NCBI GenBank assembly: GCA_032718475.1
Contig: JAUCBJ010007313.1
Span: forward strand, 1 to 40,133
Reading direction: 5' to 3'
DNA from: Nemertoderma westbladi
Lineage: Eukaryota; Animalia; Xenacoelomorpha
DNA: 40,133 nucleotides
Below are positions 1,984-34,900 of this stretch, in pieces (the stretch's first letter is position 1; every line of letters begins with the position of its first letter). The position numbers and the translations under genes were made by a program. The notes under the pieces are model-generated. The model was not told the DNA's origin. It saw only the letters and a list, made by a program, of their open reading frames with translations, and made no database searches.

Positions 1984-4900
1984 CTGTAGGAAATTTAATA
2001 AATAATAATGAAATAAAATATACTAATTGGTGTTTCAATATGTTAAAAATGAAAATTAAAATATATTTTTTTAAAAATGATATTGTAAAAGCTTTTGTGG
2101 AATAACTGATTCGTTTGCCTTGCTAACCAGTTCCCCCCCAGTCGCTAGAATACTCTAAAAAGGGATATATAACTCGAATAGCACAAGCTACCGGCTGATT
2201 GGCTGATTCGCTGTGCGAAGGGATCTGGGCTACGTTTGATTGTCCAACTAGCTTGGGAAAGTATCTCCCAATAGAATTTGAGTTGATTTTGATTTCGACC
2301 TATCACAGGTCTACTGAACTGAATTTTCCTATCTTTATGCTCTTTCTCTGTGTTGGGTGGAAGCCTTTGTAAATAAGGTTATTCTTATCAGTTTTCAGTG
2401 TTGTTGGTCTTTCTTTCCTGAGCCAGGAGAGAACGGCTTGTAAATATTTTGTGCTTTTCTGTTTTAGTCTAACACTAGTAGGCTTAATTATAAAGGGCAT
2501 ATATCCGTTATCACAACAATCAACAACTCAAAACAAACTAATGAACTTAACGCACACTGAATCACTGTGCATACTTTTATATTGTTATACTGCTATTTAC
2601 TGTCAGTTCTTCATAATATGGTTGATGAATTATTATATTTGGAATAACGATAAATAACCCCGAAACCCAATATTCTTGATATACCGAAGGTAAGAGAGAA
2701 AGGTTACATATAACGATTGTGACTTATGTTAAAGTGGTTTGAAGTGAATCTAATGTTATTTGATAGACCCTACATGATTCGGTCCGTGTTCCTTTTATAT
2801 GTGACTAAAATCAGTGAAGATCGGCAGATTAGTGTGCAGTATTGTGCAGCATTGTGTATGAGTGAGACTGATAACGAAGCATTTCCTAAAGAATGCGCCA
2901 TATATGTGAATTATAACTAAGCCATATCGTTGTGAGTAGTTTAAGTCATAACTCTGTTTATATAGATAGAGCGCCACGTCCTAAAGGAACTGTTAATATT
3001 CCCCGAAGGTAAATAATATTGTCAGAGATTATATAATACTGTCAGTCGAATAATACATTAGGCTTATATAGCAATAAGATTAAGCCGTCGAACCCAATCT
3101 CCCGGGTATATCCAGCGGGTGAATGATCGCGCACAGATTGGTTTCGACTAGTGTAGTGAATTAAATACTTGTCATAGACTAAAAGTGATTTATTATCTAG
3201 AAGACATCATAATTTGGCGGGTTAAACTGCCAAAGGTCTAAAAGCGCGAACAATAACGGATATAGCTTTATTGCAGTAAGCAATAAAGTTGAAAGTACCG
3301 GTCAACCGGTAAACCTGAACGGTACTTCAGTAGGTCAGTAGGCCCAACTGTCCTAACCGGTACTTCCCGTATAAGTACAGCAGTATTATTCGATTTGATC
3401 TTTATATGCCGGTAGGTCTTAATAATTAATCGGGGACGCCTGGTTTTTATTGGGATTTTACTTAGGCCTATTTCTGTCAGTTTTATTTATTTGTAGGCCA
3501 GTATTGAACAGAAGGCGTGTAAGCCTGATCAGATTGTACAGACAATTTGTAGGTTGAACTGTTGTCTGATTGCTGTTAGGTCTGAACGGATTGCAGCGTG
3601 TGTAGATCATCTGTCCGATAAAGAACGGTTAGGAAGTAGGGGCAGCGAATGCTGTAAGGTAAACCCCCAACTAAAGAATAAGTCGTACTACTGGGTTAGA
3701 ACGCATACTACCTAATTATTTCGGAGTCTGCATGTCCTGTAGTTTATTTAGGCTTGAGAGTAGTCTGCCATCGTTGAGTCTGTACTTTGTTTGTGTAAGT
3801 CTGTACGGGTAGCGTATAATATTTATTTAGATAATTTGTAGGCTGGATAGTTGTCTGGCTGTTATTAGGTCTGAACGGATTGCAGCGTGTGTAGATCACT
3901 TGTCCGATAAAGAACGGTTAGGAAGTAGGGGCAGCGAATGCTGTAAGGTAAACCCCCTACTAAAGAATAAGTCGTACTACTGGGTTAGAACGCATACTAC
4001 CTAATTATTTCGGAGTCTGCATATACCGTAGTTTGTTTAGGCTTGATAGTAGTCTGTCAGTGTTCGGTCTGCATTTTGTTTGAGTAGTTTGTACGCGTAG
4101 CGTAATATTTATTATTCAGAGTTTATGCGATTATTCGCAACATTCATTCCCCAAGTTTGTTCCTACAGTAATTGTGTTTGTTATACATACCGCTATAGTT
4201 AAATTAACCCCGGTACTACACGGGCTGCTTGGCGTAGGTAAAGACTGGTGATTTTGTGCATCGGTCACTCCAGCAGATGCCGTGGTTCTTTTAGCTGTTC
4301 AAGTATATTTAACTACAGATTATATGTTATACAAGTACTCGTACCTAATTTAGGGTTTAGTGTACAGTGCTTTCCGAAAGTAATTAGTGTAGGCATTACA
4401 TTTGTATTGTAAAGTGGTTGATAGGCACGTTCGATTAGCTCTATTAACTTCTAGGTAGGAACACTCCGTGATACATAACGTAGAACCTATAGCGATACGG
4501 CTATAGGTCGTCAGGTGGTGGTATTTTCCTATCTGGACAACGCAGTGTATTTACTACTACGTATTATTTTCAAATACCGCAGTACCCTGTCCGTTGTAAT
4601 AACCAGATACTAACCCTTTGTTAGGCTGGTTTGTAGACTTCTTGTAAAATTACCCTGAAAATTCGTATTTTGTGTTTTTTGTAAATTTTTGTGTTTATTT
4701 AGAGATTGTAATCTCACCCGAATTGTACGTAATTTGTAGTATTAAGTAACTTAGGTAAATTAGAATTATTTGTTTTAGTGTCCTATAAGTAACACTTCAC
4801 TGAAAGCGCACCGCTTTGTGTAGTGATTACTCCCCAGAAATAATAACATTTATTTCAAACATTGAAAAAACCCATTAAAACGGGTATATATATATTATAA

Positions 4901-7900
4901 ATCAAATCTAACGATTTATAAATAGTAGGCCTACCATACAACCATTAGGTCCCCATATCAGTTGGTCTACTGCTCAAATAGCAGTAATAAAGTAAGTAAA
5001 GTAACCAAGTAACCCTAAAATTCAGAAATTCAATTATTTAAAATAATTGATATACCGGTATTCCCAATAGGCCTATTATCTTTATTTCTATAAATCTAGG
5101 CTGAAATTATACCGGTACTTGTAATTAATTCTATTCCAGAATTATACATACTACAAACTGTAAGCTGTATACCGGTATTCCCGATAGGCCTATTATATAT
5201 TTATATATATTTGTGCTAAAATTATACCGGTATTCTGTGATAAACCTAGTCTGTAATAATACTTATATAGTTATATAAATACTATAAGTATACCAGTGTT
5301 CTAATATATTATATATATATCCTACTACACTGAGTAGCAGTATCGGTAATTAATTACTAGGCTAGCAGCTAATACTGAGTTACTAGACTTGCTCAGACTG
5401 TAATACAGCAGTAGACATTCAACGGTATACATAGACATGTCTGATACTAAGCAGAACCTGTCAGACAGTTTATTAGATGTAACTATCTGCGACTCAGATA
5501 GAGGCGTAGAACCGTCTGGTCGTAAGTTCAGTTCACCTCCCACTGTGAGGAAGGTCATCCCTCCTGTAGTAATAACCGAACCTAGGCTGGTCCAACATCG
5601 TAGGTTTATCATAGGCACTCGAGCTCAGGTCAAGCGGGACCAAGAAGCAGCAGAACAGCAACAACCCGCGAGACAAGAACTTATTTCTCAGCGGCCCAAC
5701 AGTTCCAGTAGTGATGATACTGTAGAGCTGACACCCGAGCGCGGAGCGAAGATGACGGATGCGGTTTATTCGGATCCCCTTCTCATCCTTCCTGCAGCCG
5801 TACTCACCAGGTTATTGATCGCTGTGGAAGAACACCAGATCGATTGGGCGAGAAGCCAGCGTTCAACTAGAGATAGTTATGCTGGATACACAAGAGAAGA
5901 ACTGAAGTCCATAGTCGAGTCGCAATGGAACTTCCCCGGACCCGGACTCCCGTTTGATTTATCCGAAGCTGCCTGGGAAGACATACACCGGATGGGAGTA
6001 GCCAAGGAAACCATCGATCCAGCTGTGTGGAAGAGGTCCGCAGCCGGATACGCACAGGGATTCTTCAGCTCTATGGAGCGAGTAGAAAAACAACTGTTAC
6101 AACAACCTCAAGGACCTCAAGAGCAGGGACAGCTGCTTTATCAAGTAAGAGAAAGAATTCTACGAATCAGGTTAATATTATCGGCCTTTGAGGAGGCTTC
6201 TAAACGAAGACAAGACACGTCGTTGCAAGTTGCCATAAAAACTTGGTTTCAACGGGTGAGTCGCCAGGTGCAAGGAACAGCTCAGTGGAAAGCTCAGCTG
6301 GAGGAGCGCTCAACCCATGGAGAATCAACAGACGCTACTTATTCCCAAGTGGAAAGTGAAGCGACGGCAGAGAAACCGCATAAGAGGGATGCCATTGACA
6401 TCTATCTGTCGGACTATCAACGTTTTTTAGGTAATGACGAGTTGAGGAGAAGGTTAGAGGGACTTAGCCCTAATAGTGAAGGAACCAAGCTTGTGTTGGA
6501 TGCCATCGATGTGGAAATGAGGGCTGCGAATCAGGCTAAATTCGATGAACAACTCCGCCTGACACGAGTCCAAGAAGAGCAAGTAAAGAAAAAACGCATA
6601 GAAGACAGAAAGAAAGCGGCAGTGGTAGCTGCAGAAGCAGAAAGAAAAGCGGCAGCGGCAGAGGCAGCAGCAGAGGAAAAAGCGGCAGCGGCAGCGGTAG
6701 CGGCAGCGGCAGAAGCAAAGGCGGCCGAGGCTGAGAGAAAGGCCGCAGAGGCAGTGGCAGAAGCCGAACGGAGAGCGACTGAAGAAACCACCCAATTAGA
6801 ATTGGAAAACATTCAGGAGAATCAAGACTGCATAAATAAACAGTTAACAGCTAGTAATATGCAGATGATGAATCGATCTACTCCCAAAAGACAGAGATAT
6901 ACATCATCTGAGGAAGGCGATACCACCGATACTGAAGGCAAGGGAAATAGATCTCGTCTAAGTAGACGTAAAAGAACATTCCACCGTCAGAAATTGCCTG
7001 ATTTGCCTCCAGCTGTTAGAAGGCAACTAAATAACACCAACTTAGGTAGTACAGAGCCCACAGACCAAATAATTAAAATAGAAAGACTCCCTACTATAGT
7101 AGATGAGCCTGAAATAATTAGGCCTGTTCTTGAAATCACCCCTTCGGTGATAGACACACCTGTGCTCCCTGAAACTACCTCTAAATTCCCTCTGCATAGC
7201 ACTAAGCTACCTGTGCCCCGTAGAACTGCCCAGGGGACAGTTCAGGTCCTGGACCCCGAGCGAAATATTCATAATTTGTCGCCCGTTGTCCCTCGTCCGC
7301 CCGCTACAACGTTGGCGACTCCCGCTTCGGCGGTCGAATGGGTGGACGAGGGACGGCGGGGGATGGATATCCTGCTCGGGCAGATGCAGGAGACTGTCCA
7401 GCAATTCAAGGGCACAGTAAGGGAAAGTAGGCTAGAGTTGCAAGAAGTGCAGCAAAGTATCGCGCTAGAACGCGATAAATTAGTAAATACTCAAAAGGGT
7501 ATACCGCCACCCTCTGTAACAATGTGTCAACCTGTTAGGTCTGAAGTATCTCATGCGCAAGGTGTGGAGCCTACACGCATATATACTGCTAGTGAGGTAG
7601 AAACTCCTATAGTGAACCCTATTAAGGGTAATTATAGACCTGTTGATAATGACATTCCCTATAGAACTGATCATAATCCGAGAAATGTATATACCGATAA
7701 CTCGATATTAAATAACACGATGGCCCAAGAAAGTTTTACGCGTCAAATGGCTAGAACCGAAGCCCGGCAAGCGGTAAAGGTGGGAGAGATCGTCAAGTTC
7801 AATGGAGATGAGATGAAATGGTTACCTTTTAATGAATATTACAAAGATAACATACAGAACTCTGTACTATCTAATGGAGAAAAACTTAGATACCTCATCG

Positions 7901-10900
7901 AGTGCTTGGAAGGATCTCCCAAGTTAATGGCGTTAAAGTTTATTGGACATCCAGACGGATTAAGACAAGTTTGGGACACACTAAACATCAGGTATGGTAA
8001 TAGGAATAATATCGCTAAGTATTTATATGCAAAATTAGTAGCGCCCAGAAAGTTCATCAGCAGTGGGATAATAGAGTTTTCCGATGAGATTCAAGAGATC
8101 TGTAGACAATTAGATTGGTTAGGTAAGTCTCATGAATACCAAAGTTCTATGGTTATTGGAGCTGTGGCTTCTACTTTACCGAAAGGTGGGGTAGGCACAC
8201 GCTGGGATAAGAAAGTACTATATATGATGGAACAACAACGACGAGACCCTACCATGACTGATCTCATGTCATTCTTGGATGGAGAAGTGAAATTGCAACT
8301 CCTCAAGCAGTCCCGAGAGAAGACACCGGAAAACAAGGTAAGTGAAAAACCCGTCTCTAGGAGAAAGGTAACACCAGTGTGTTATACAGACGACGGCGAA
8401 AGCCAGACTTCTCAAGGAGAAGATAGCGGGAAAGACACTGATAGATCTTATTATGTCAATAAAATGCCTAAAGATCAGGTAAGTAAATTCAAGTCTCGAG
8501 CAAATGACAGGAGAGAACCGATAAGAAAAACTCCTCCCACGTCTCCCAAGAGAATTCAGGTGAGAAAGCCCGAAGAAAAGGCAAGTGTACACAATGTGAC
8601 TCAGAATAAGGTAAGTAACATCAAACCGAAATGTGCGCTGTGTGACGGGACCCACCATTTGAATAGGTGTGATGAATTTCTAAAGAAATCATTAACGGAG
8701 AGACGCGAAGTTATGTGGGATAAGCGGTTATGTTATAATTGCCTCAGACAAGGACACCAACGGCGAACCTGTTTCTCTGACATAAGGTGTGCAAAGTGTG
8801 GTGCGAAACATCATATCTTGTTGCACACTGAATTCGATCGAAATAGTCCGAATCAGGTAAGTGATTCCGAGCTACATGTCCAATTCAGTGATGTGAACGA
8901 CACTGATCAATCTGAGATGGAAGGATTCTATACAGACGAGTTCTCCTACGAAAACGAATCCTGTTACATGATAAATACCGCAGTGTATCGAGCACTCACC
9001 TATGAAAAGGATACAGACAACGACTTCACTCTAACTACTTCAGAACGACAACCATCTTGGAAAGAGCCATCTTCCAATGTAGGGATCCGAGAGTTTCCTG
9101 TGGTGCAAGTAAGGGTTCACGGACCTAAGAGGAGTTATGTAGTGAACGCCCTCCTTGACTCCGGTAGTACAGGAACATTCATCGACAAAGAGCTAGCCGA
9201 AGATATATTTGCTGGACAACCCAAGTTCCAAACTAAGCTCAATATGTCCGGCATTATGCAAGTTTGGAAATCTACAATAACAGCTGATTATTATGTAGGC
9301 GCGTTGTCCACCCCACAAGATGAACTAGGAGAACACAGCATAAGGTCAGTAAAAATGGTGGCTATAAAGAACTTCGCTACTACTCAAGCAGACCTTTATA
9401 ATTGGGACGAGGATGAGAGCATCCAACATCTTAACATACCTCGATTCCAGACTGATTATCCTGGAGTACAAATACTCATCGGCCAAAACGCGCATGAGGC
9501 GCTGGAGACATTAGAGAAACGGCCTGCTCAACCGCAGCCACTACAGACCTATGCGGTAAGAACTAGAGTAGGTTGGTACTTTACTGGCCCTTCCCGTAGA
9601 ACACTCAGAGAAAGACTACCGCCAGACAGCGTATGCCAGGTGAGTGAATGGGAAGATGATACCAGTGAGGGAGACAACTTAACTGAGGGAACTCCATACT
9701 CCTCAGATAATGACGACGTTCACCAGCTTTTTGATGAGGAGAATACCATCGATCTCCTTAAGGAAAACGAGGCTTGGCAGAACCAAGTGAACTTATGTCA
9801 ACTTCTCTATCCATCTGAACGAGAAGCTTATAACGACGAGTTAAATGACGTCATTGAGCGTCATAATGCCAAGACTCGGGATGAACATGCCGTACGATTC
9901 TTTACGCAAGAGGCGGTAGAGCCCAATTCCTACGATAAAGCCTTGTCGGTGGAAGAGGAAAGGGCCAAGCAGATCCAAGAGACAACTACACGTTTCCTCA
10001 AAGATCAAGGTAGGTATGAAGTCGGTCTACCTTTCCGCAAGAAAGAACCGAAGTTCATCAATAACAGACCTTTGGCGGAAAAAAGAATCGCGCAACTCCA
10101 TCGACGCCTTACGGCTAATTCTTCAGCTAAAGCAATGTATCAAACACAGCTGGAAAAATTTATTAGTAAGGGATACGCGGAGAGAGTACCGGAAGAAACA
10201 CCTGTGACTGAAAGAACGTATTACTTAACTCACCATTACGTTCCTAAACCCGGTAAGACACACGAAGTGAGAGTAGTGTTTGATGGCTCCGCTCTTTACA
10301 TGGGTCAATCCCTTAACTCTGAATTGTTACCCGGACCCAACTTGCTTCAATCTTTGTTGGGAATTCTTTTAAGATTGAGACAATATTCGATTGCTTTCGC
10401 CTCCGATATAGAAGGCATGTTCTTACAAGTCAAGGTGTTAGATAAGGATCGAGATAGTCTACGATTTCTGTGGTGGCCCAAAGGAGACCTCAACCAGAAA
10501 CCGGTGGAGTACTGGATGACCATCCAGGCCTTTGGGATAATCTCAAGCCCTTCCAACGCCTGTTCGGTAGTGCGTACCACTGCAGAGGACAACAGAGAGG
10601 CCTTCTCTAAGGAAGTGATCGACAACATCAAGAGAGACATATACATGGACGACAATCTGAAGTCCCTTCCATCAGTTGAGGAAGCCATTGAGGTCGCTAA
10701 AGGAACGGTAGAGTGCTTAAAAAGAGGTGGTTTTCGATTAACAAAATTCACCAGCAACTCCCGTGAGTTTCTGGAGTCGATCCCCGCGGAAGATCGAGGG
10801 GCGAAAGATCTAGATTTGATCAAAGATGATCTGCCAGAAACCAAGACACTCGGCTTGAAATGGGACACAGAGCGAGATATCCTGTTTTTCCAGCTAAAAC

Positions 10901-13900
10901 AGCGAGATAATCCAGTTCGAACAAAACGGATTTGCTTAAGTATACTGAGCACTTATTTCGATCCATTGGGATTTATTAGCCCAGTTATATTGATTGCTTG
11001 TAGCTTGGTACAACAAATGTGGCTTGAAAACCACTCATGGGACGATCCACTTAAGGGAGAATTATTGAAGAAGTGGATGGAATGGGAAGATTCTCTGCCG
11101 GCTATCGAGGATTTTATAATTTCCCGTTCATATTTTGGTCATGTTCTCCCTACGTATTCCTATCAACTCCATGTGTTTGGAGACGCCAGCGATATGGGAA
11201 TAGGTATAGTAGCCTATCTAAGGGTAGAAACTCCGGATGGAATCAAAGTCGCCCTGGTTACTTCTAAGGCATTAATCAACAACAAGTTGAAAGTTCCTCG
11301 AGCGGAGTTAAAAGCGGCTCTATACGCTACAGCCATCGGCCGGAATGTAACAGAACAGATTGACTATCCATTAGAGAAAACTGTCTATTGGACCGACGCT
11401 TTACTCGTGTTAGAGTATATAACCAATGAAGTCTGTCAGTTCAGCGTCTTCGTTACCAACAGGGTAGCCATCATACTTAGTCGCACGACGATGGACCAAT
11501 GGAGACATTGCCCCGGAACGATTAACCCAGCAGACATCGCTTCCAGGGGAGCGACTCCAAAGGAATTGGTAAATACTCCCGAATGGTTAGGAGGACCTGA
11601 CTTTCTCTACAGAGAAGAAGAAGAATGGCCACCCCATCTCACAACAGCAGAGATCAGACAGGCCAAGGGAGCGGAGAAAGTTAAACCCAAAACTCGAGCG
11701 AGTAAATCGAAGTTGTTTAAACCTGCGGTTGATCTATCTGTATTATTTACTTCCGGAGAGGATGCTTTGGATCAGAAACCCACCGCCATGACTAAAGAAG
11801 TCTTGGAAATCCGTGACAAGGATTGGAAATCTGGAATACCAGATATTTCGCAAGGACTCTCACCTCTCTTGCAGAGAGCGATACGTCACTACAGTTCCTG
11901 GAATCGGCTCTGTAAAGCTGTCACCTATCTGAAACGATGTTTTCATCATCGTTACTCCGGGACAAAGACCAATAGTGATGATGCTCCATCAACATCTGCA
12001 CGAGTCCATGTTGTTAAAGACCTTCCCCAATACAAGATATCCGACAGGTTTCTAAAGGAGAAGATCAGTTACCAGGAGCATGATGAAACCAACAAACAGA
12101 TGCTGAGACTCCTACAATGCTATGAGGATTCCGATAAGTATTTCCTGTTATTAAGAAATCCACAGATGCGCTTAAGGGATCGCTTCTCTAGTACCATGAT
12201 AGATGGGTTAATACGTGTTGGAGGTAGACTGACCAACGCCCCATTATCCTTTGACACTAAGTTTCCCATCCTCATTAGAAATCTTGACATACAAATCAAG
12301 ATAATTGTAGATGTTCATAGCAAACTGTACCATGCTGGTAGAGAACGAGTTCTGAGCGAAATTCGAACTCGCTACTATTTTTATAAACCCCGTAGGGCTC
12401 TGAACCAAGTTCTTAGGAACTGCATACCCTGTAGGAAAGCATTCAGTAGGCCTTTAACACAGCGAGAGGCAGAATTACCTAGGGAAAGAGTAAGCTTCTA
12501 TGAACCACCCTTTACTAATACCGGTGTGGATTTATTTGGCCCTATTGAAGTATATCGTGCCCGGACTATAGTCAAGAGATGGTGTGTCATCTTCGTTTGT
12601 ATGACTTGTAGAGCTATCCATCTCGATATGGTAAACGATCTATCCACCAACAGCTTCGTGTTGAGTTTACGACGACAGATTGCTCGCTTCGGAACCAGTA
12701 ACACGATGAGATCGGATAAGGGAACGAACTTCATTGGCGCCAACAACGAAATTCAAGCTTACGTAAAGGACTGGAACAAAAGACAGGTGGACGATCAGCT
12801 AAGGATAACAGCGTCTAGCTGGACCTTCAACGCCGCCGACGCCCCTTGGTGGGGAGGAAGTTGGGAGAGATTGATTAGGAGCGTGAAGACTGCGTTCCAC
12901 TTTATTGTGCCTTGTCGCGCTTATCTCACCGACGAACTATTGCGGACGTTAATGGAGGAAATCGCCGCCTATCTCAACGAAAGACCGCTTATGCCAGTCT
13001 CTTCAAATCCTGATTCCCTGGAAGCGCTAACACCCGCGCACTTTCTACTGAAGAAACCCGTAGCCATGCTCCCACGATCGGAGATCACAGACGGAGACGA
13101 GTACTGCCGTCGAACCTGGCAACTTATGCAGTTGCTATCCCGTCGTTTCGCTGACCATTTCGAGAAACATTACCTGTCCACTCTACAACTTCGAACTAAG
13201 TGGTTTGCGCAGCAAGAAAACGTCAGCTCTGGAGACATGGTGCTTATTGTGGACCCCGATCTCCCACGTAAGCGATGGCAAACAGGTCGTATCATCAAGA
13301 CGCATATCTCGAGCGATGGTTTGGTGCGATCAGTAGAGCTCGTCGTCATGCGGCGGAACTTTAAGAAACCAGGGATAGTCTTTGAGACTCAACAGCTCAA
13401 TCGCCCAGTGGGTCGTTTATGTTTACTGGAAAGAGACAGAGAGCTCTCCGGAAACTATGGAAGGCAAGAAACTCTTCCCACGACCACTTCCCTAATCCAA
13501 CCGACATCTAGGGACTCCCCAACTTAATATCGTTCGGAGTGGGCGTGTGACCCTATTATTTTATATTATTTTTATTATTTTTATATTTATGTATGTATTA
13601 CTATGTAATTTTATTATAATCGTTTTATTTAATTTAGTAGAATATTATTTAGCGATTATTTTGTAGAATAGTGCAATATATTCGTGTTTATTACGTACGT
13701 AATTACTTATATTATATTTAGTGCGACGGCGAGAAATAATAATTTTTTCTCTTTCCTTACTGTCCGTATTATATTATAAATACGTAACTACAGTAAGATG
13801 AAATGTACGTACTTATTAAAGTACAATAAAGCCACTACTATATTTAAGTATTATTGGTAGGCAGAGTATTAGGAATGCAAAGTTCAGATCCTCGTGTCTC

Positions 13901-16900
13901 GGCTAAACCAAGCTCTGGGTAGACCTTGGAAACGACTTGCCTCTTCACACTGACATTGCTTCGTGCGATATTGCTCTCATACCGTATATTAAATAATACA
14001 TATAGTAGCGTGATGTCCCTTTAACAGTAGCGTATAACGCAAAATAAATCTGTTAAACCCTTTGACCATCTGTAATTCTAGTCGATTAAGATATCGCGGC
14101 ACCCACCGATATACTTGAAAGACAAATTCTAGAATCAGTGGTTAACGTCCCCAGACAAGTTCTGGAATAAATCGGTGCCCATCTCAAATATTAATTATTT
14201 AATATTTGCAAATCTAATAAATCAAAATCTGTAAATTCAGATCCTTCAACAATTCTAGTCAATTAAGATATCGTAGCATTTACCGATATTCTTAAAAAAG
14301 ACAATTGTCATAGAATTAAGGATCTTGTGTCCCTAGACATGTTCTAGAATCAAAATATGTCCATTTAATTATCAAATAATAAAATTTCAGGGAATAAATT
14401 TAAATTCATGCCTTTTAATGAATTTAATAAATTGCCATTTTTACGCAATTTATAACATTCCCAAAATTCCATTAATTAATAGATCAAGGGAGCGGAGATT
14501 TATCTTATTATGCATATGAGTGTGCGAAAGTCACCCAAACATAGTCAATAGCCGATAAAATTCATAAAGTCATGTATAGAACAGAACATTGACTATTAAA
14601 GAATACTATTAAATAACATCCCAGATCTGTATGCATTGGAACTACCCTAATTCTACCGCTAGCTTTGCATAATGTCACCATAGCAACAACCACGATAGAA
14701 TTAGAATTGAGTTAAAAGAACAATAGAAAGCTTGTCCCATTGAATAGCATAGGGAATAAATAGCGCACTACTAGTATCCAAGGATACATAATAATACAGT
14801 GACATTCTGGAAGGCATTGACTAACGGACAAATGGCCCGAATGTGCGTAGTTGTGACCAGTTGTGTGGTATTTGTGAGTTTATAGGTGAATGTTACTGCT
14901 AAAGTGTGTTTACAGTAGCTAGTCGCAATCGTAAAAGTAACCTAACTCTCCAAGGAATACCTGAAGTACATCTAAGCCTTTGGGACGGACAGTTGAGTGA
15001 CTTGTGCCGGTTATCGTTGTCGTTGTACGGCTACGTCGTTGGCGAAAGTATAGCGACAGCGGTACATCGGCGCTGAGAATCTCATACTGTCCGGGGGCAA
15101 GGGAGAAATAGGCAGCGACGCCCGCTCGCCTAACAATATATAAACTCATTATAATATTGGTGAACTCGTATAGCAGATATGACTGAATTAATAGAAGATG
15201 ATCTTGGTATCAGGGAGAGATATACTCTACCTTTACAAGCGTTTGTCGATAGCTTGATACGCGGCGACGCTGATCCAACTACTACGGAGGACGATGGTCG
15301 TTATATCGAACCGCCAATGTCCCAGGAGCAACTTACGCGTGAATTGGACTATAGAAAATTCACTGCTCGCTATACACATCGTAATGGTACGTATATGGAC
15401 TTCTTGACCACTGGTCATCCTATTGATTTACACGACACCGACGATGTCGATACCGAAAGGGAAATGGTTTTATTTAAATATCATACCCAGCGGAGTCGAA
15501 ACGATAAATCGAGAATAGAACACGAGAACTCTATTCGAAATCAACTCGAAGGATAGAACGTGGAAGAAGGTTGATGCGAACAAATAAAGGAGAACCACTG
15601 GAGAAAAGACATGGGTTAATGTCCAGGGTCCATAATGTGAATAGTTTTCCCCGGGGCACGGGTGCTCGCGGGCGGTCTCCTTCGGGAGGCTGTAACTTTC
15701 CCTTCCTTCATCGTTTTCCTGTAATTATTGTGATCAGTGTCACAATTAAAAGGCAGGAATGAATGATGATGTGACGGAAAACACATCCATTGTGGTATCT
15801 TATGGATACTATCGTATATCCTCCCTCCTCGCTACTCCTCTTACCCTCTTATATGTTGTTACTAAAGATACGACATATTTCATCCCACCTTCTCTTCCAA
15901 CGTGCTCGGAGCTTCGGGAAACGAGCACTAAACCTCCCATCCCTTACTGTTCATCTGGATGCTAATATTAGTGTCCGCACCTCCTGTCCATGTCATATTC
16001 TGTTGATATTTATGATATCAACTTCCACCCTCTCGTTCTTGATTAGATAATCAGCCACTTCCTAATTTCCTCAAGTCCACAACCGTGAAACAAGGACTGA
16101 AAGGACACGAGGATAGTTTGTGAACAACTGGTACCATTATGTGTCATAAATCTGGTTGTTCACCTCCCTTAATGATTGGGGATATAAATCTTATGTAGAA
16201 CAACTGAGGCAAACATATCCTTGAACTGGTTGTTCCCTCATCACACTGGGGATAAATTCAGTTGGAGATAGTCCTCGAATGTAACAATCCTCCTACTGAG
16301 ATCGTATTTCGGAATATTTCTGAATACGACATAGGTCTTCCCCTGCTCTTTACCACTACCATCACTGTCACTGTCGGAAAACATATTGGGCATACAACAG
16401 GAATATGGAGAACATTCCATACCCTTTCGTTGATACTCAGCTGATTGCTCCTTGGGCCGAAGGCCGAGGTTTCTTTCGCACTATGTATGCCAATACACCC
16501 AGCGACATTACTAAAGTACAACGGACGTCCATCGGACATCTTGCCTTTCAAGAATATGGATGGAACTTCAAAGTTGGAAATCCTATCAATTACCAGCAGG
16601 TATATGGAGATCATTACTCCCGTTTATATTTTGACGGACCATTAACTGCGCCTGGTGCAGTATATAGCTTTATGAGTGTTCCACTTCGCCCTTCCTTAGC
16701 TATATACACGATCTTTGAAAACGCAGCACTTGCCGGTTGGCTAGCCGATGTGTGCAGTCGTACCATACGCGCTCACCCGTTAATACTTGGAACTAAACTC
16801 GCCAAGTTAGACGAACATAATAAGTTCATACGTTTCGAATGTTTCCGGTGCTTTCTGACTCCGTTCCGTAACGTCAATAGTCAGTTCAAGGACCGCGCGC

Positions 16901-19900
16901 TGACCAAACTCAGTCTGAGAGACTCGGCTGCGGAGAAACTGAGTAGCGCTGGATTTGCCGTGTTTCAAGACGTTTGTATACAGAACTCACATTCATCTGT
17001 TATACAAAGACCCCGAATACCTACAGGTTATTCTGTCGTGGAAATACAGACAGTGGATCCACTTACTGAGACAGACGCACCCACTTCGTCTATACAACTG
17101 GAGGATGAACCAGTGTGCTTGGAATCAGAAGCGATTCAGCCTACAACTTCCTGGAGCAGTGACAATGATTATGTCATAGAGTGGTATCAAGGTCCACAGC
17201 GTCTCACAGCGTACGATTATCGACACGCCAACTACGTTTCTCGAAAACGTTGTCGATTATGCGCATCGAGAGACCACTTCATTCCTCTAGACTCGAGCGT
17301 ACCTTGTTCCTATTTCCTCGAACAACCGATGATGGAAATATATTGTGCTTATTGCCGGCTTAATAACTCTCATATATTTGCCGTCTGCCCACAATTTATG
17401 ACTCAATGTCACTACTGTCAATTTAAAGGACATGAAAGTTACAATTGTCCCTTTAATCGCGATTTAGAGAGCGTAGACGAGATGATCACCCTGCGATACA
17501 TCCGAGCTTGGGAAGCGAATGCCGATTTACATTGCGAATCCCGACATCGCTATTACCCTGGACGAGCTTACGAGGGAGTTTACGCGTTCCATCCTTATCT
17601 ATTCGCGTCGATTGAACAGAAAACACGCGTACCAAGTTACGAGTTAATGAAGCGTGTTGGTGAGTGTATTTCCACCAAGTTTGTCAGGAAATACCTTAGA
17701 AACGTTAACCCTAATGATATAACCACATATCACCTGATCAATTTTATCCGTCAGGAAGCCTGAGTATGGCGACATCTTTGTGAACTCGCATCCTGAACTA
17801 CAGGAAATATCTCGGCGACCATATGAATATCGAACCCGAGAACGCGAGCTGGAGAGAACCATTAAACCGAGAAAGTTCCTCACCACTCACGGTCCACCCA
17901 CCGTTAGTGTCCAGACGACCCGTCAAGGACCCGTAGGAGCTGCTGTCTTGAGACGCGCTCTAAAGGCCGTTAGACCTCACTCCACTGAGGTTGATATTAA
18001 TCAACCAGGTACTTCGACCGGCGGGTATACCGATCGTAACCCTGCACCTTCTGATGCAATTATATTGCACCCTTCGCCTAGGAGCTACAGCCCTCCTCGT
18101 AAAGTGGCTCGCCCCAAAGAGAAAATGACTCTTGCTAGCTTTAAAAAACTGCATAAACGCCGTCCGCGCAAGAAAGACTAACTGTTTAGAGTATTTATGT
18201 ATATTAGAAATTGTGATTTTGTATATTTTATAGACTTAAATCCCATTTTCTGGGAGCGGTGTAAAAGCTTTTGTGGAATAACTGATTCGTTTGCCTTGCT
18301 AACCAGTTCCCCCCCCAGTCGCTAGAATACTCTAAAAAGGGATATATAACTCAAATAGCACAAGCTACCGGCTGATTGGCTGATTCGCTGTGCGAAGGGA
18401 TCTGGGCTACGTTTGATTGTCCAACTAGCTTGGGAAAGTATCTCCCAATAGAATTTGAGTTGATTTTGATTTCGACCTATCACAGGTCTACTGAACTGAA
18501 TTTTCCTATCGTTATGCTCTTTCTCTGTGTTGGGTGGAAGCCTTTGTAAATAAGGTTATTCTTATCAGTTTTCAGTGTTGTTGGTCTTTCTTTCCTGAGC
18601 CAGGAGAGAACGGCTTGTAAATATTTTGTGCTTTTCTGTTTTAGTCTAACACTAGTAGGCTTAATTATAAAGGGCATATATCCGTTATCACAACAATCAA
18701 CAACTCAAAACAAACTAATGAACTTAACGCACACTGAATCACTGTGCATACTTTTATATTGTTATACTGCTATTTACTGTCAGTTCTTCATAATATGGTT
18801 GATGAATTATTATATTTGGAATAACGATAAATAACCCCGAAACCCAATATTCTTGATATACCGAAGGTAAGAGAGAAAGGTTACATATAACGATTGTGAC
18901 TTATGTTAAAGTGGTTTGAAGTGAATCTAATGTTATTTGATAGACCCTACATGATTCGGTCCGTGTTCCTTTTATATGTGACTAAAATCAGTGAAGATCG
19001 GCAGATCAGTGTGCAGTATTGTGCAGCATTGTGTATGAGTGAGACTGATAACGAAGCATTTCCTAAAGAATGCGCCATATATGTGAATTATAACTAAGCC
19101 ATATCGTTGTGAGTAGTTTAAGTCATAACTCTGTTTATATAGATAGAGCGCCACGTCCTAAAGGAACTGTTAATATTCCCCGAAGGTAAATAATATTGTC
19201 AGAGATTATATAATACTGTCAGTCGAATAATACATTAGGCTTACATAGCAATAAGATTAAGCCGTCGAACCCAATCTCCCGGGTATATCCAGCGGGTGAA
19301 TGATCGCGCACAGATTGGTTTCGACTAGTGTAGTGAATTAAATACTTGTCATAGACTAAAAGTGATTTATTATCTAGAAGACATCATAATTTGGCGGGTT
19401 AAACTGCCAAAGGTCTAAAAGCGCGAACAGATATTGTTAGTAATAAATCATCTACGTTGGTAGAACAAGGATGATAAAGTGCTATATTGCTTATAAAGCT
19501 ATAGATAGGCCTATGATAAAGTGATAAAAGGACAATAAAGCGATTCGGAGAGCGATTCGATAACATATTGGTTCAATGTCAACCCTGTAAGTAATTCCCT
19601 ATACTGACTGCTTACAGACATTTGGCCTTGTCACTCCCCCTTTTTTTATAAAAAGGTAACAACTTTAAAGATTAACAAAATAAATTCAATTCAATTAATA
19701 TTGCTTGAAGGGATTCCTATTGGTTTGAGGGAATTTTTAAATTAAATAATTTAAGCAATTTAATTTAATTTCGCCAATAATTATTTTACAATTGATTAAG
19801 GCGGCAGTGTGTGTGCCGCCCATGGAGTTCAAAAGTGAAAGATTTAAAAAGTGCGAAAATACTTAAAGGCGGCAGTGTGTCGCCTTTTAGGGTAGGATAA

Positions 19901-22900
19901 GTAATAATATGGTTTATCATCTTTATATAAAAATCTCTGGTACGAGAAGAAAATAATCCTTGGTCCGATCAAATAATTTATTTTTCTTGGTCCATTGGGA
20001 GGAAAAATTTATGTAATTTATCTTTGTTACGCAAAGGGTTTTAAAGGCGAGATTTATTTTCAATAAAATAAATTATGATGACAACTTTAATGACTGAATT
20101 AATGACTCACTGATACAAATCCTTAGAGAATATGGGACAGTTGTCGTTCTGATCTGCTACATTTATAGTAACTGTTGTTGTTCCTGTAAGTATCTTTGGT
20201 GTTGTCTGATCTCTTTCAACCCCCTTATCCTTCGCTATTACCTTAAATGTTATCTGTAAAGGAAGACACAAATATGGTGTTGGGTATAGGGCAGGCCGAA
20301 AAATAGGTAGGCTGAAATATAGAGATGTAGGCCGAAATATAGAGATATAGGTAGGCCGAAAAATAGAGATATAGGTAGGCCGAAATATAGAGATATAGGC
20401 GGAAAAATAGCGATATAGGTAGGCCGAAAAATTGAGATATAGGTAGAAATATAGAGATATAGGCTTAAACATAAAGATATTCGTACGCCGAAAGATATAG
20501 GTAGGCCGAAATATAGATATATAGGCCGAAAAATAGAGATATAGGTAGGCCGAAAAATAGAGATACAGGCCGAAATATAGAGATATAGGTAGGCCGAAAA
20601 ATGGAGATATAGGTAGAAATATAGAGATATAGGCTTAAACATAAAGATATTCGTACGCCGAAAGATATAGGTAGGCCGAAATATAGAGATATAGGCCGAA
20701 AAATAGAGATATAGGTAGGCCGAAAAATAGAGATACAGGCCGAAATATAGAGATATAGGTAGGCCGAAAAATGGAGATATAGGTAGAAATATAGAGATAT
20801 AGGTAGGCCGAAAAATAGAGATACAGGCCGAAATATAGAGATATAGGTAGGCCGAAAAATGGAGATATAGGCCGAAAAATAGAGATATAGGTAGGCCGAA
20901 ATATAGAGATATAGGCGGAAAAATAGCGATATAGGTAGGCCGAAAAATTGAGATATAGGTAGAAATATAGAGATATAGGCTTAAACATAAAGATATTCGT
21001 ACGCCGAAAGATATAGGTAGCTCGAAACATAGAGATATAGGCCGAAAAATAGAGATGTAGGCGGAAAAATAGAGATATAGGTAGGCCGAAAAATAGATAT
21101 ATGTAGGCCGAAACATAAAGATATAAGTAGACCTAAACATACAGATTTAGGTGGAAAAATAGAGATATAGGTAGGCCGAAACATAGAGATATAGGTAGGC
21201 CGAAACATAGAGATACAGGCCGAAATATAGAGATATAGGTAGGCCGAAAAATGGAGATATAGGTAGAAATATAGAGATATAGGCTTAAACATAAAGATAT
21301 TCGTACGCCGAAAGATATAGGTAGGCCGAAATATAGAGATATAGGTAGGCCGAAACATAGAGATATAGGTAGGCCGAAACATAGAGATATAGGTAGGCCG
21401 AAACATAGAGATACAGGCCGAAACATAGAGATATAGGTAGGCCGAAAAATAGAGATACAGGCCGAAATATAGAGATATAGGTAGGCCGAAAAATGGAGAT
21501 ATAGGTAGAAATATAGAGATATAGGCTTAAACATAAAGATATTCGTACGCCGAAAGATATAGGTAGGTCGAAACATAGAGATATAGGCCGAAAAATAGAG
21601 ATATAGGCGGAAAAATAGAGATATATGTAGGCCGAAAAATAGATATATGTAGGCCGAAACATAAAGATATAAGTAGGCCTAAACATACAGATTTAGGTGG
21701 AAAAATAGAGATATAGGTAGGCCGAAACATAGAGATATAGGTAGGCCGAAACATAGAGATATAGGCGGAAAAATAGAGATATAGGTAGGCCGAAAAATTG
21801 AGATACAGGCCGAAATATAGAGATATAGGTAGGCCGAAAAATGGAGATATAGGTAGAAATATAGAGATATAGGCTTAAACATAAAGATATTCGTACGCCG
21901 AAAGATATAGGTAGGCCGAAACAGATATATAGGCCAAAAAATAGAGATATGGGTAGGCCGAAAAATAGAGATATAGGTAGGCCGAAACATAGAGATATAG
22001 GTGGAAAAATAGAGATATAGGTAGGCCGAAAAATAGATATAAGTAGGCCTAAACATACAGATATAGGTATGCTGAAAGATGAATAGGTAGGCCGAAACAT
22101 ACGTAGGCCGAAGATATAGGCCGAAACTAGATATATAGATGGCCGAAACATAGAGATATTGTTGACCGAAAACAGAAAAGGCTCTAATTCCAAATTAGTT
22201 TTAGTTTAAAATAAAAAAATGTGAAAATTAACCTTTTTTTCTTCTTCGTAATCCAACAACCCTGGTCCAGCTCTTAGATAACCATCAGCTGTCATATAGA
22301 ACACCTCATTGGCTCGCACACCGTCCAATGAGGTGGAGTCAATACTGTACTCAACCTAAAAATATTCATAATAAATTTGTTTAAATTATTACTATATATT
22401 AAGAAACTCCCTTGTTTATTGGAATCCGATAAACTCAGACATAATATATAGTTGAATTAGAAATGAACTCAGATAAGATGTATGTCAGTGTGTTGGATAA
22501 TTGGATATTTAATTGGTCTATGGTGTTTTGTAGTTTGTGAGGCTTAAAGACTCTAATGTATTTTAGATTAACTCGATAAGACAGGATGTATGTAATGTAG
22601 CACTTTATACGACATAAAATGGTATTATTTTATACAACACTTAAAGATACTTTATGAAACGGGTGAATGATTTAGCCAAGATAAAAATATGTTAATAACG
22701 AAATTGACATTGGTCATGTATTTGCTTTTACTTATGCATACTTTTACTGAATAGGTGAGTAACCTGTGAGTTGACGTGTCCAGGTTTATCAGCATCCGTA
22801 GCAACGAGAGGCAGAACCAAAGACGAGACAGGTCGGTTCTCCTGCACAGACTTTGTGAAGGTAGTCAGTCCAAAATCGGGTGTGTTGTCGTTGATATCCT

Positions 22901-25900
22901 TGAGAATAACTTGTACTGTAACATCGGTTGTTTGCTGGTTAGGTGGAGTACCTTTGTCCTTGGCCTGTATCTTAAGGTTGTAGACTTCAATCTAGGGAGC
23001 CAATGAAATCAGGAAATTAGTAAAATTAGGCATAAAAATACTACCCATTTTTTTCAAAGCACCAAAATGTAACTGGTAAACTTAACCGTAAGTGCTACTC
23101 TATGCCTAGGCTAAGGGCGTACGGTACACACAGGTATGGGGACAGGGATATAATTTCGAATCTGGAATCTTTTAAGCAATTTTTATGTGAATTTTTGGTT
23201 TCGGGTTGACCAACTAAATCAACAAAAATAAAACTGACTCAAATTTACAAAAATATTATGTCAGCCTGCGTTTCCAAATTGGACAGATTTGAAATCAACA
23301 TTACCGAACCGGTATGTGCAGTCCTACGGTAAAGATGACTAATTTATTTATATGCTAAAAAAAAGTAAATTTTCTTCGGCCGCTAGGCCTGGGATTACGC
23401 ACAAAGTCTGACGACTTATTTCCAGTGCGGTCCCCCCACAACTTTACTCACCAGAGGAAACTCAGTACTCATTTAGCTACTATTTAAGAATGCAAGGCAG
23501 AGATGCGCCCTGGTTGGGACCTTTAAAGCATTCGTGCCGAAACGAAAACTGCCCTGGCCCATGTGAGGCTCGAACCCACGACCTATAGGAGATATGAATT
23601 CAATGCAACCACTACACCAAGGTGGAACCTACATCGATGTACAAGGCTGGGATAACTCCCTCTTGAAATGACTCCCTAATCATCTCAGCCTAGGCTGAAA
23701 ACACTCCCCTTTGGCTGAGATGACTCCCCTTTGGCTGAGATGACTCCCCTTAGGCTGAGAACACTCCCCTTAGGCTGAGATGACTCCCCTTAGGCTGAGA
23801 TGACTCCCCTTAGGCTGAGAACACTCCCCTTAGGCTGAGATGACTCCCCTTAGGCTGAGATGACTCCCCTTAGGCTGAGATGACTCCCCTTAGGCTGAGA
23901 TGACTCCCCTTAGGCTGAGATGACTACCCTTAGGCTGAGATGACTCCCCTTAGGCTGAGATGACTCCCCTTAGGCTGAGATGACTCCCCTTAGGCTGAGA
24001 TGACTCCCCTTAGGCTGAGATGACTCCCCTTAGGCTGAGATGACTCCCCTTAGGCTGAGATGACTCCCCCTTAGGCTGAGATGACTCCCCCTTAGGCTGA
24101 GATGACTCCCCCTTAGGCTGAGATGACTCCCCTTAGGCTGAGATGACTCCCCTAATTGAGTTATAGTTCATATCCATACCTGTGGTATTTTCATATATTG
24201 CAAAAAACTGTAACCTATGTTATTAGTTATTGTTTACTAGTTATTGTTTTGGTTAGAAAAGCCCGCCACTTTAACCTGTTCCTTTCCGTTAATTAAGAAA
24301 TCTAGGGAAAAAACTGGGCAGTGTTTTAGACTGAAAAGACTGGATGTTTGGTTAGGAGTTATCTCAGCCTGTTACACCGGATCGCTTGTTTATTGTTATT
24401 ATTACGGTTTTTATTCCCCGGACTTACCTTCTCCCTATCCAACTCGTCGGCCACTGTCGCGAACTTGACTCTGAATTCTCCGGTGGTCTTATCGATGGCG
24501 AACTGATCGAATCGCGGGTCGCCGCCCACAATAAAGTATTCAACGGCCCCGAAAGCGTTAGAAGTTCCATCGTCGTCTAAATCCGTCGCTTTTATGTTTG
24601 TCGTTATTGAGAATACTGAAAGCGGAGTTGATAATAAATTATTTTTTGACCCTGAACTTACCGGACAATCTCATATAGTAAAGTGATATCCTAATATATA
24701 TTACCCACTGCCCATGTTACAATAGTTAATCAATGTTGATAATACTATGGTAATAGGGGCTACCTACACTGTACCCGTACACTACTACTATAAGAGGATT
24801 CACCCAGGGACTGCAGAAACTTATGTATTAAAAGCAAAATAAAACAATTTTCAATTTATAAACACGAAGTCTAGAACCCGAGCATTTTGCAGATGAGACT
24901 TCGTAGGAATTCACAAGGTTGGTTTGTAGGGAGTCACTGGACTGGTTCGAAACCAGCTCACAGCAATAATTTGTCAATAAATTCAAACCCATAAGGTCCC
25001 ATTAAAAATAACCTGGCTAAGCCATTCAAAATCAATAGCATAATATTATTATATCACTGAAGTATATCTCTAGAATATTATTTCAGAAAATGTAGCAAAT
25101 TATAGCGTTATGACCTTGTTTATTATATTTGGCTCGCTTCGCTCCTGTAATAAAGAAAACCCACTCGTTTATGTACTAAATTTCACAAAAGTAAGTAAAA
25201 TTTATATAAATTTTAATTGTTATTATTGTTATCCCCAACCCTGAAGAAGATGAACTTAAAAGTTATAAATAAAGTAAAACGTACAACTTGGATCGTCTTC
25301 GAATACGTGGGTGTATATATACGGGGTGTTCTCGAAGATAGGGGCATTGTCGTTGCAATCTGTGAGATCGACGGTGAGATGCCAATCGGTGCTGGTAGTA
25401 ACCGGAAGGACACTCTGGGTGCACTTCGGGGTCTGGCCACGGTCGCACGCCTAAATGAGTCACAGAGATAATGCGAGCAATTATTGGTTGAGCGGAATAA
25501 ACTATAGATTATGTGTGACAATGTTAACAGGACTGTTTGTACTGCAGAAATAAGTACAGCAATGAGTCTGGCTTTGTTGTTAGGAGTGTCAACTTACCCT
25601 AGCAACCAATGTGATAGCTTTGTTGTTTGGAGGGTCTCTGTCTAGATTCGCCTTGACCACGCTCAACTCTCCGGTGTTGGGTTCCAGGAAGAAGTAGTTT
25701 CCAGGGTTGCTAAGCAACTTATACTCTACGTCACTATTCCAACCGGCGTAGGGCGGTGTCAGGGTCAGATCCCTTGGTCGATCTTTATCAGTGGCAATAA
25801 ACTGTAAGGCAATAAATATATGGTAGTTTTATAAGTTGGGCATATGAAGAATAAAAAAAATCTAACCAAAAAACTAAACCAAGTGTATGACATTATTGTA

Positions 25901-31900: not shown

Positions 31901-34900
31901 TGGGATGTTTTAGAGGCTATAGACGAATCTCATATCCCAAGAAACTGGGAGGAAAGAGATGGAGATTGCGAGATTGACATTCCAGGTGAGGGAATTGGAA
32001 TCAGGTCATATCAGGACTGGGTTGTTAGACAGCCAATAACGTTAGGTGGACTGGGTTGTTAGACAGCCAATAACGTTAGCTGGGCTGGGTTGTTAGACAG
32101 CCAATAACGTTAGGTGGACTGGGTTGTTAGACAGCCAATAACGTTAGGTGGACTGGGTTGTTAGACAGCCAATAACGTTAGCTGGGCTGGGTTGTTAGAC
32201 AGCCAATAACGTTAGGTGGACTGGGTTGTTAGACAGCCAATAACGTTAGGTGGACTGGGTTGTTAGACAGCCAATAACGTTAGGTGGACTGGGTTGTTAG
32301 ACAGCCAATAACGTTAGGTTGACTGGGTTGTTAGACAGCCAATAACGTTAGGTGGACTGGGTTGTTAGACAGCCAATAACGTTAGGTGGACTGGGTTGTT
32401 AGACAGCCAATAACGTTAGGTGGACTGGGTTGTTAGACAGCCAATAACGTTAGGTGGACTGGGTTGTTAGACAGCCAATAACGTTAGGTGGACTGGGTTG
32501 TTAGACAGCCAATAACGTTAGGTGGACTGGGTTGTTAGACAGCCAATAACGTTAGGTGGACTGGGTTGTTAGACAGCCAATAACGTTAGGTGGACTGGGT
32601 TGTTAGACAGCCAATAACGTTAGGTGGACTGGGTTGTTAGACAGACAATAACGTTAGGTTGACTGGGTTGTTAGACAGCCAATAACGTTAGGTGGACTGG
32701 GTTGTTAGACAGCCAATAACGTTAGGTGGACTGGGTTGTTAGACAGACAATAACGTTAGGTTGACTGGGTTGTTAGACAGCCAATAACGTTAGGTGGACT
32801 TGGTTGTTAGACAGCCAATAACGTTAGGTGGACTGGGTTGTTAGACAGACAATAACGTTAGGTTGACTGGGTTGTTAGACAGCCAATAACGTTAGGTGGA
32901 CTGGGTTGTTAGACAGCCAATAACGTTAGGTGGACTGGGTTGTTAGACAGACAATAACGTTAGGTTGACTGGGTTGTTAAACAGCCAATAACGTTAGGTG
33001 GACTGGGTTGTTAGACAGCCAATAACGTTAGGTGGACTGGGTTGTTAGACAGCCAATAACGTTATGTCTTGCATTAACGTCTAACATTAAGTTCTATTCG
33101 GTGGCAAGAAGATCTCAGTCCGGTAGCGTTTTTTGGGGTTCTGGAACGGACGCTCCCCAGCTTTGGAGGCGAAAAATGTGTATATCCTCAGTTAGGAAGA
33201 TTATGTGGAAGGGAAGAGGAAGGAGAGGTGGAAGCAACTTCTGGACTCTGGATGCCGTACTGGGAGAGACCTGGGGTGTGCTTGGACATAGCTTCAAAGA
33301 GAGGCAATATATATCTATAATTACCTGGGTCAAGAGCTGGAAGGCGTCTTGGCTAGTGGCAGTAGTTGGTGTTGGAGAAGGAAGTACAGATGGAAGTACC
33401 ACAAGGAATATCACTGAGCAAAGGGAGATGCTCAGAGGGGCGGCACTTAAAAGAGCTGTGGAGTTACACCCTAACCAGCATGCCAGACCAGTTCTGGTCT
33501 GGCCTCAGATGGAAAAGCTATCCTCTTCCTGGGTGCTGGCCCTTCCAGGGCCAGAAACTGGACTTTCTGGACCTAATTTTTCAGAGGCTGTATGCGAACA
33601 TCTTTGCCTATCCAGCCCTGCCTGTAAGGGTATTGTGGGAGAGAGGGTTGGAAAGACTGAGGTGGAGAGCTTTGGGGATGGAGTAATGGCAGCAGCCTTA
33701 CCAGGAGACCCACGGAGAAATCGACATGTTGTAATTTTGTAAATGTTTTGAATATATAATAAATATGAATTATTTATATAAGTGAACTAAATAATACATT
33801 TGAGTTAAAAGACACACCACCCCCACCCCCCCCCCCCCCCCCCCTATTTCAGCGGGTTTACTAACATTAACGGTAATTTTGACAGCTTGAGTCACTGCTG
33901 TTGTCCCGTCCGTGGCTTCCACAACCAAGTTGTATTCATTTGGTCCCGCGGGGTACCAAGTAATATCGCCGGTCGCCGCGGTGATCTTCCCCAAGAAATC
34001 TGCCCCAGACGGAACGGTTTTTATTGCGAACCAGCCTTTAGTATCTCCTGATTTAATGCGGAACTGTAAATGTTAAAGGATATTAAATTGATTAAAACAA
34101 ATAAATATTAAACACTAAAAGTAGACACTAATAATAGGTTGTTCGTGTCTAAAACAGTATATTTGTGTCCAATATATAATTGCTGAATCAGTTATGGACA
34201 TACTTACTGATATAGTTATGGACATACTTACTGATACAGTTATGGACATACTTACTGATACAGTTATGGACAGACTTAATCATACACATACTGATACAGT
34301 TTCTAATGGACACACGTATATTCACTATGGATACACTTACTAAATTGTTACAGTTACAATGGACTTGGACACACGCAAAGTTAATATGGGCACACTTACT
34401 GATACAGATACTATGGACACACGCAATGTTAATATGGGCACACTTACTGATACAATTACTATGGACACACGCAAAGTTAATATGGGCACACTTACTGATA
34501 CAGTTACTATGGACACACGCAAAGTTAATATGGGCACACATACTGATACAGTTTCTAATGGACACTCGTATATTTACTATGGATACACTTACTAAATTGT
34601 TACAGTTACTATGGACACACGCAAAGTTAATATGGGCACACTTACTGATACAGTTACTATGGACACACGCAAAGTTAATATGGGCACACTTACTGATACA
34701 GTTACTATGGACACACGCAAAGTTAATATGGGCACACTTACTGATACAGTTACTATGGACACACGCAAAGTTAATATGGGCACACTTACTGATACAGTTA
34801 CTATGGACACACGCAAAGTTAATATGGGCACACTTACTGATACAGTTACTATGGACACACGCAAAGTTAATATGGGCACACTTACTGATACAGTTACTAT

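Follow-up and report, generated by a model that had tools for sequence, protein, structure and literature searches.

An intact BEL/Pao retrotransposon of Nemertoderma westbladi probably primes reverse transcription with RNA of its own, nucleotides 2500-2511 of its LTR transcript, in place of a tRNA end. The analysis covered a window of 40,133 nucleotides, to which all coordinates refer. Tentatively advanced in an initial annotation of this DNA, tRNA-independent priming by the element is the best reading of the data, and is backed by a conserved island that ends at the LTR partner to the primer-binding site (PBS), as well as by a matched change at the last base of the primer in a sister lineage. 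The extended pairing that formed part of the same proposal is probably replaced by a local hairpin.

The element and its primer-binding site

The BEL/Pao element at 2084-19429 (17.3 kb) is young and intact. Its LTRs of 1169 bp (5') and 1170 bp (3') both have the form TGT...CA and are 99.6% identical, four substitutions and one indel apart, so the insertion is recent. A 5-bp target-site duplication, GATAT, flanks the element on both sides. Its main features are the following.

2079..2083, + strand: left target-site duplication GATAT (right copy at 19430-19434)
2084..3252, + strand: 5' LTR, 1169 bp, TGT...CA
5404..13527, + strand: single Gag-Pol ORF, 2707 aa from stop to stop, first Met at 5437, with zinc knuckles and protease, RT (YMDD), RNase H and integrase motifs
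16324..17763, + strand: extra ORF of 479 codons, Cys/His-rich, without a Pfam or clear Atlas match
18252..18259, + strand: likely PPT, a short purine-rich tract adjoining the 3' LTR
18260..19429, + strand: 3' LTR, 1170 bp

The Gag-Pol ORF contains the Pfam domains DUF1759 (PF03564), Peptidase_A17 (PF05380), Integrase_H2C2 (PF17921) and DUF5641 (PF18701). The motifs for protease, RT, RNase H and integrase are all intact and follow the BEL/Pao order. Belpaoviridae is a family itself defined by RT phylogeny. The LTR-flanked gag-pol, the PR-RT-RH-IN order and the Pao-type domains are those of this family, and the RT-RH is closest to BEL/Pao, with PF05380 present in all 120 matches listed and in 40 of 43 in a second search. 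These Pol relatives are distant: identity is 29-43% among the 120 matches listed, and the best RT-RH relatives do not exceed 43% across the entire stretch. In a tree of 143 RT-RH stretches (the query plus 142 of 163 proteins, the others covering <420 aa), unlabelled as to the BEL, Pao, Tas, Sinbad, Suzu, Dan and Flow lineages, the element lies on a long branch. Pol has no chromodomain match in Pfam, and its domains are those of BEL/Pao and not of the Ty3/gypsy chromoviruses to which the Tf1/sushi group belongs.

Between pol and the 3' LTR (13528-18259, 4.7 kb) there are also shorter ORFs at 15164-15554 and 17738-18179. This region gave no convincing family match and no env-like match; for the 479-codon ORF the best Atlas score was 0.77, and Pfam gave none. 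The leader contains a 289-bp direct duplication (3540-4113, 90%). The insertion is in an intron of a cadherin-repeat gene (many exons, 1800-36850, minus strand), antisense to it and ~100 bp from a 3' splice site near 1985. At 37-1828 there is a 67-bp tandem array, the unit of which holds a cadherin exon end and splice donor (minus strand), so that the donor has been amplified many times. A related LTR end (2-36) adjoins this array. At the opposite edge (39811-40133) two related LTR starts, 75-84% alike to the LTR of this element, stand in tandem at 39811 and 39895, the result of either a nested insertion or a duplicated LTR start. Intronic tandem arrays with periods of 20-48 bp are found at 20303-22101, 23691-24153, 32014-33064, 34366-36716 and 37484-37913. 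Two short ORFs (31727-32060 and 39409-39739), neither with a Pfam match, we take by eye to resemble the ends of non-LTR retrotransposon proteins.

Priming of the element would involve three short sequences.

3253..3264, + strand: PBS without TGG, starting at the first base past the LTR
2500..2511, + strand: candidate self-primer, exact complement of the PBS, with predicted 3' end at 2511
18677..18688, + strand: copy of the primer 12-mer in the 3' LTR, the primer source if the 3' copy is used

The initial annotation had pointed out that TGG is missing right after the 5' LTR, that the 12 nucleotides there are complementary to the LTR, and that the geometry is correct for priming. All of this was borne out on recomputation. 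There is no TGG anywhere in 3253-3330, and no PBS matching the 3' end of tRNA-Arg or tRNA-Gly as in the ICTV description of Belpaoviridae. The sequence 2500-2511, like 18677-18688, is a perfect reverse complement of 3253-3264 (12/12), the match ending at 12 nt. Base 2511, the 3' end of the would-be primer, is paired with 3253, the first base after the 5' LTR. The arrangement is thus of the Tf1 type, in which at least 10 nt directly after the 5' LTR are complementary to the LTR, without a tRNA PBS. Of 14,994 internal 12-mers, the one at +1 alone is perfectly complementary to a part of the LTR. The match is rare, as had been estimated, but a Markov model gives an expectation somewhat higher than the earlier ~7e-5, at 1e-4 to 1e-3. 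The energy of the duplex is good rather than extreme, and is equalled somewhere in the LTR by 8 of 200 random non-coding 20-mers.

ARAGORN found no tRNA genes in the whole window, and a search of 2084-3500 against Rfam gave four matches, all far under threshold. A pattern scan of metagenomes returned two loci, both chance bacterial matches without similarity to the window. Prokaryote genomes and viral contigs, scanned for the pattern, showed no matches, and a protein scan of viral contigs gave seven pattern matches and no relative.

Conservation and probable matched changes in sister lineages

Relatives of the element were taken from contigs of four of seven public runs (X1, X3, X4 and X5), one per study, three of them labelled organism A and one organism B; X1 may be the sample from which the window itself derives, and X4 may be RNA-derived. 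The figures come from 40 of 210 substitution rows, 12 of 80 indel rows and 24 of 441 loose ends in a first contig comparison, and from 20 of 31 loose ends and 26 of 228 pieces in a second comparison, of the island. Two features were defined.

2462..2512, + strand: island of 51 nt, conserved among sister lineages and with variable flanks (depth, joints and loose ends in 4/4 runs)
2513..2585, + strand: variable, G-poor and A/C-rich spacer just past the predicted cut

The element family is abundant and varied in the contigs. Summed contig depth, which is not copy number, peaks in the bin 2473-2519 and drops 20- to 200-fold in the bin 2520-2566 in 4/4 runs, from 264,059 to 6,981 in X1, 101,244 to 5,038 in X3, 19.2 to 0.57 in X4 and 4,761 to 23 in X5. 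Among the loose ends listed, alignments start at 2462 in 4/4 runs and stop at 2510-2513. The drop in depth and the alignment ends therefore place the partner, 2500-2511, at the 3' end of the conserved 51-nt island. C2512 is retained in the sister groups shown, and a sister lineage with changes at 2492-2497 leaves the primer 12-mer intact. Sequence upstream of 2585 differs between lineages.

The PBS itself varies. The change 3253 A>T accounts for 15% of depth in X1 (23 contigs), 17% in X3 (12 contigs) and 74% in X4 (one contig); among the rows listed, it has 0 of a depth of 384 in X5. The change 3257 C>A accounts for 0.75% of depth in X1 (14 contigs), 24% in X3 (four contigs) and 88% in X4 (one contig), the position being uncovered in X5. 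Sister contigs also have a 3-nt insertion after 3265. Both substitutions and the insertion are borne by sequence with a single depth value (16.6) in X4; this runs 36-40 nt further, and so is not 3'-LTR flank.

Partner changes at 2511 and 2507 were predicted before the island contigs were examined. Alignments that halt at 2510 go on with A at 2511 in eight contigs of X1, two of X3 and one of two in X4, the last with a depth of 15 against 16.6 at the PBS. The change predicted at 2511 thus appears to have been found, matching that at 3253 in the PBS, with linkage by depth and not by shared molecules. For the second pair the evidence is a count. In X5 there is a 30-nt overlap between piece 26 (depth 2942) and pieces 22 and 23 (depths 1213 + 1369), both of which end at 2500. 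Two differences are present in piece 23, including one at 2471. Piece 26, which stops at 2510, likewise has two, both in 2472-2510. From the overlap it follows that there is at least one more difference within 2501-2510 in the lineage differing at 2511. This would fit the predicted change at 2507; the letter itself is absent from the table, which omits differences near alignment ends.

Some observations count against covariation. The one pair seen by letter, 3253/2511, lies at the edge of the island, where change is likelier. The shares of the two PBS changes in X1 disagree (15% versus 0.75%), X5 has no 3253 change listed though the 2511 lineage seems present, and one X3 contig, whose PBS may differ too, leaves the 12-mer after 2502. 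For the covariation in family members suggested at the outset, the contigs give one pair by letter and probably a second by count, with linkage by depth and with the discordances just named. Relatives at the window edges, which had been suggested for the same purpose, were uninformative: past the LTR end at 2-36 the sequence is host intron DNA, and the LTRs that start at 39811 and 39895 are cut off by the window edge before they reach the partner. Were the primer a host RNA, each cycle would restore the PBS, and the LTR would have no reason to track it. That the PBS varies between lineages, with the LTR appearing to follow it, counts against a host RNA primer.

Predicted RNA structure and proposed mechanism of priming

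The signals and predicted structures that bear on the mechanism are these.

2464..2470, + strand: TTAGTCT, initiator-like (YYANWYY, A+1 at 2466), also readable as a 3' splice site (AG 2466-2467); candidate 5' boundary of the RNA
2466..2484, + strand: predicted weak 6-bp hairpin at the island start
2489..2494, + strand: TATAAA, a possible TATA box; one A is absent in one sister lineage
3073..3078, + strand: likely position of the poly(A) signal, AATAAG in this copy; A at 3078 (AATAAA) in 60-82% of depth, 4/4 runs
3127..3249, + strand: predicted U5 structure beside the PBS, 3127-3132 with 3244-3249 and hairpins at 3153-3196 and 3213-3234
3265..3289, + strand: local hairpin directly 3' of the PBS, nine perfect pairs plus flanking pairs

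The initiator consensus is YYANWYY, and the only such sequence in 2440-2560 is TTAGTCT, four bases inside the island. The genomic RNA would start at or upstream of 2500, the best candidate being ~2466 at the island start. A start derived from TATAAA, at ~2519, falls in variable sequence without an initiator-like motif. TATATAA at 2166 was rejected as a TATA box, since it lies within a 59-nt stretch missing from the relative at 39895. At the other end of R, A at 3078 makes up 60, 73, 61 and 82% of contig depth across the four runs, and R probably ends near 3095. ATTAAA at 3160 was rejected as a poly(A) signal, given that 3162 is C in 93-100% of depth.

Read as an acceptor, 2464-2470 resembles the host's own splice acceptors, and the site at 2467 may act as one. 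The LTR has strong donor-like sites at 2690 and 3009 in the same context, CCGAAG/GTAA. AG sites lie just ahead of the Gag ATG at 5437, and the 2.9-kb leader holds 18 ATGs. Together these suggest that a spliced Gag-Pol mRNA without the PBS could be made. A primer built by splicing was considered and set aside as unnecessary: the 12-mer is contiguous, no AG precedes it, and 2084-2460 has no strong donor.

Folding calculations gave a probability of primer-PBS pairing of 0.8-1.0 for RNA running from 2490 or 2500 to 3300. This was 0.02-0.2 when the 3' end was placed at 3400, and at most 0.07 for RNA starts at 2196-2466. With the duplex forced, the fold lies 0-0.2 kcal/mol above the free minimum for a start at 2500, and 3-9 kcal/mol above it for one at 2466. 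Predicted folding therefore backs the primer-PBS duplex weakly. Concerning the features of the Tf1 'pretzel', the U5-side duplex (3127-3132 with 3244-3249) is predicted, and the downstream side is a local hairpin. The pairing of ATAAAG with CTTTAT, proposed earlier as an extension of the duplex, is present on paper, but 3266-3274 form a perfect 9-bp inverted repeat with 3280-3288, and the helix 3265-3289 has a calculated probability of 0.96. In the folded RNA the extension is probably replaced by this hairpin.

We propose the following mechanism. Genomic RNA would begin at or upstream of 2500, most plausibly at ~2466, and 2500-2511 would fold onto the PBS, flanked by the U5 structure on one side and the 3265-3289 hairpin on the other. 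Cleavage between 2511 and the conserved C2512 by a nuclease, probably the RNase H of the element as in Tf1, would generate a 3'-OH, from which RT would copy from 3252 back to 2512, through U5 and R. With R ending near 3095, ~580 nt of R would be left after the cut at 2511, giving room for strand transfer. In retroviral mechanics the primer is copied during plus-strand synthesis. Here such copying would rewrite the PBS from the primer, keeping PBS and LTR partner matched, which would explain an exact match that tracks the LTR. We regard as evenly balanced a more extensive proposal, that a high-copy, recently active BEL/Pao lineage independently exchanged tRNA priming for a self-primer forming the 3' end of a dedicated ~46-nt module (initiator or splice acceptor, hairpin, primer and conserved cut site), kept by sister lineages while the surrounding LTR turns over.

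Within self-priming we favor, with moderate confidence, the 5' copy of the primer over the 3' copy. If TATAAA at 2489 is a TATA box then the RNA would start at ~2519 with the 12-mer in U3, and only 18677-18688 could prime, by folding back or from a second packaged RNA, with the cut after 18688. TATAAA does sit in the conserved island, long-range folds from starts at or before 2466 disfavor the 5' duplex, and sequence upstream of 2585 varies among lineages, as U3 often does. Yet the region 25 to 31 nt beyond the TATA lies in the variable spacer and lacks an initiator-like motif, the only one in 2440-2560 being at 2466, and one lineage is without one A of TATAAA. Moreover, the cut would detach the 3' R required for strand transfer. 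We consider this form of self-priming unlikely, though a serious candidate. The same hexamer could instead be a poly(A) signal, placed 17 nt ahead of 2511, with host cleavage near that position giving the 3'-OH. This is very improbable. The 40 nt downstream are 55% A, 25% C and 5% G and so are not G/U-rich, the hexamer is altered in one lineage while a canonical hexamer position is available at 3073, and no run of T is present in the PBS for a poly(A) tail to pair with.

Priming by a host RNA, a half-tRNA or other small RNA, would leave the LTR match as a regulatory anti-PBS pairing. Belpaoviridae are described as tRNA-primed (PMC8742986), and anticodon-loop primers are known in copia-type elements from passages of PMC6317226 and PMC10886601. 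By eye, the 12-mer as an anticodon arm could give U33 followed by CCG. However, that reading has A32 and U37, where tRNAs usually have pyrimidine-32 and purine-37. No Rfam family comes near threshold in 2084-3500, and the PBS differs between lineages with the LTR appearing to follow, leaving a host primer improbable. We give similarly little credence to a match that arose by chance, to a structural helix unrelated to priming, or to a TGG site lost in this copy. While the random 20-mers that equal the duplex energy allow for chance, the register is exact at +1, for one 12-mer in 14,994, and the element is young and intact. Concerning a lost TGG, a piece from a second study (X3, 3224-3320) crosses from LTR to leader without a gap and with one difference, the leader is deeply covered in every run, and there is no junction insertion among the 12 of 80 indel rows listed. 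Self-priming by the LTR 12-mer remains the likely reading.

Comparison with known and predicted self-primed elements

In the passages of PMC7175516 on Tf1, the RNA's initial 11 bases anneal to the PBS, and RNase H cleaves between bases 11 and 12. Tf1/sushi elements and Tj1 are reported to self-prime in passages of PMC7175516, PMC10085805 and PMC4600332, and Tcn1 and the copia TAR lineage are predicted to do so in those of PMC6317226, where the criterion is an LTR complement of at least 10 bp starting 0-5 bp past the LTR. By contrast the ICTV account gives Belpaoviridae a host tRNA-Arg or tRNA-Gly primer, an 18-nt PBS, genomes of 4.2-10 kb and LTRs of 0.2-1.2 kb, and describes their replication as poorly understood (PMC8742986). 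In two BEL/Pao surveys the word tRNA is absent from the main text (PMC554778, PMC3118150), and no self-priming BEL element is named in the passages of PMC3601003, PMC10886601, PMC6934838 and PMC5443660. A wider search, by title, abstract start and passages, found no self-priming BEL/Pao element, in agreement within that scope with the statement of the initial annotation that none was known; most subscription papers and Repbase reports lie outside it, and an earlier mention is possible.

If our reading is correct, BEL/Pao would be the third retroelement superfamily with the trait, which Tf1 is shown to have and which is predicted for Tf1/sushi, Tcn1 and one lineage of copia. This would suggest that moving away from tRNA is easily and repeatedly achieved, and the element would be freed from silencing by 3'-tRNA fragments. 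Such elements would escape annotation tools that demand a tRNA PBS. Since family members are both numerous and young, primer, cut site and RNA start could be mapped directly in the host. A nematode element, Cer7, reportedly encodes its own tRNA primer.

The element resembles Belpaoviridae (genus Semotivirus) in having Gag-PR-RT-RH-IN in one ORF, Peptidase_A17, DUF1759 and DUF5641, an LTR within 0.2-1.2 kb and an animal host. It differs from the ICTV description in lacking a tRNA-type PBS, in its length of 17.3 kb compared with 4.2-10 kb, and in the extra ORF. As in the plant TAR-lineage copia elements (Houba, Osr-1) and Tcn1, self-priming is predicted by the criterion given in passages of PMC6317226, and there the TAR lineage shows the trait outside gypsy; those elements belong to other superfamilies, with plant or fungal hosts. 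As passages on Tf1/Tf2 of Schizosaccharomyces pombe, Tj1, Tosmo and the Tf1/sushi group describe for those elements, the PBS adjoins the LTR and is complementary to the element's own LTR RNA. In common with the Tf1/sushi group as so described, the duplex has 11-12 bp, the 3' end of the primer pairs at the LTR boundary, and a cut is needed to provide the 3'-OH. The Tf1/sushi elements are Ty3/gypsy chromoviruses, whereas Pol here is that of BEL/Pao with no chromodomain match, and this difference of family would point to an independent origin of self-priming. Unlike that group, the LTR is 1169 bp long with 741 nt between primer and PBS. Where the Tf1 primer consists of the RNA's first 11 nt, the candidate RNA start here may be ~34 nt upstream of the primer, and in place of the three-duplex 'pretzel' of Tf1 the helix downstream of the PBS is a local hairpin and not a pairing with the LTR. 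The element is therefore likely to function like Tf1, but outside the Tf1/sushi group.
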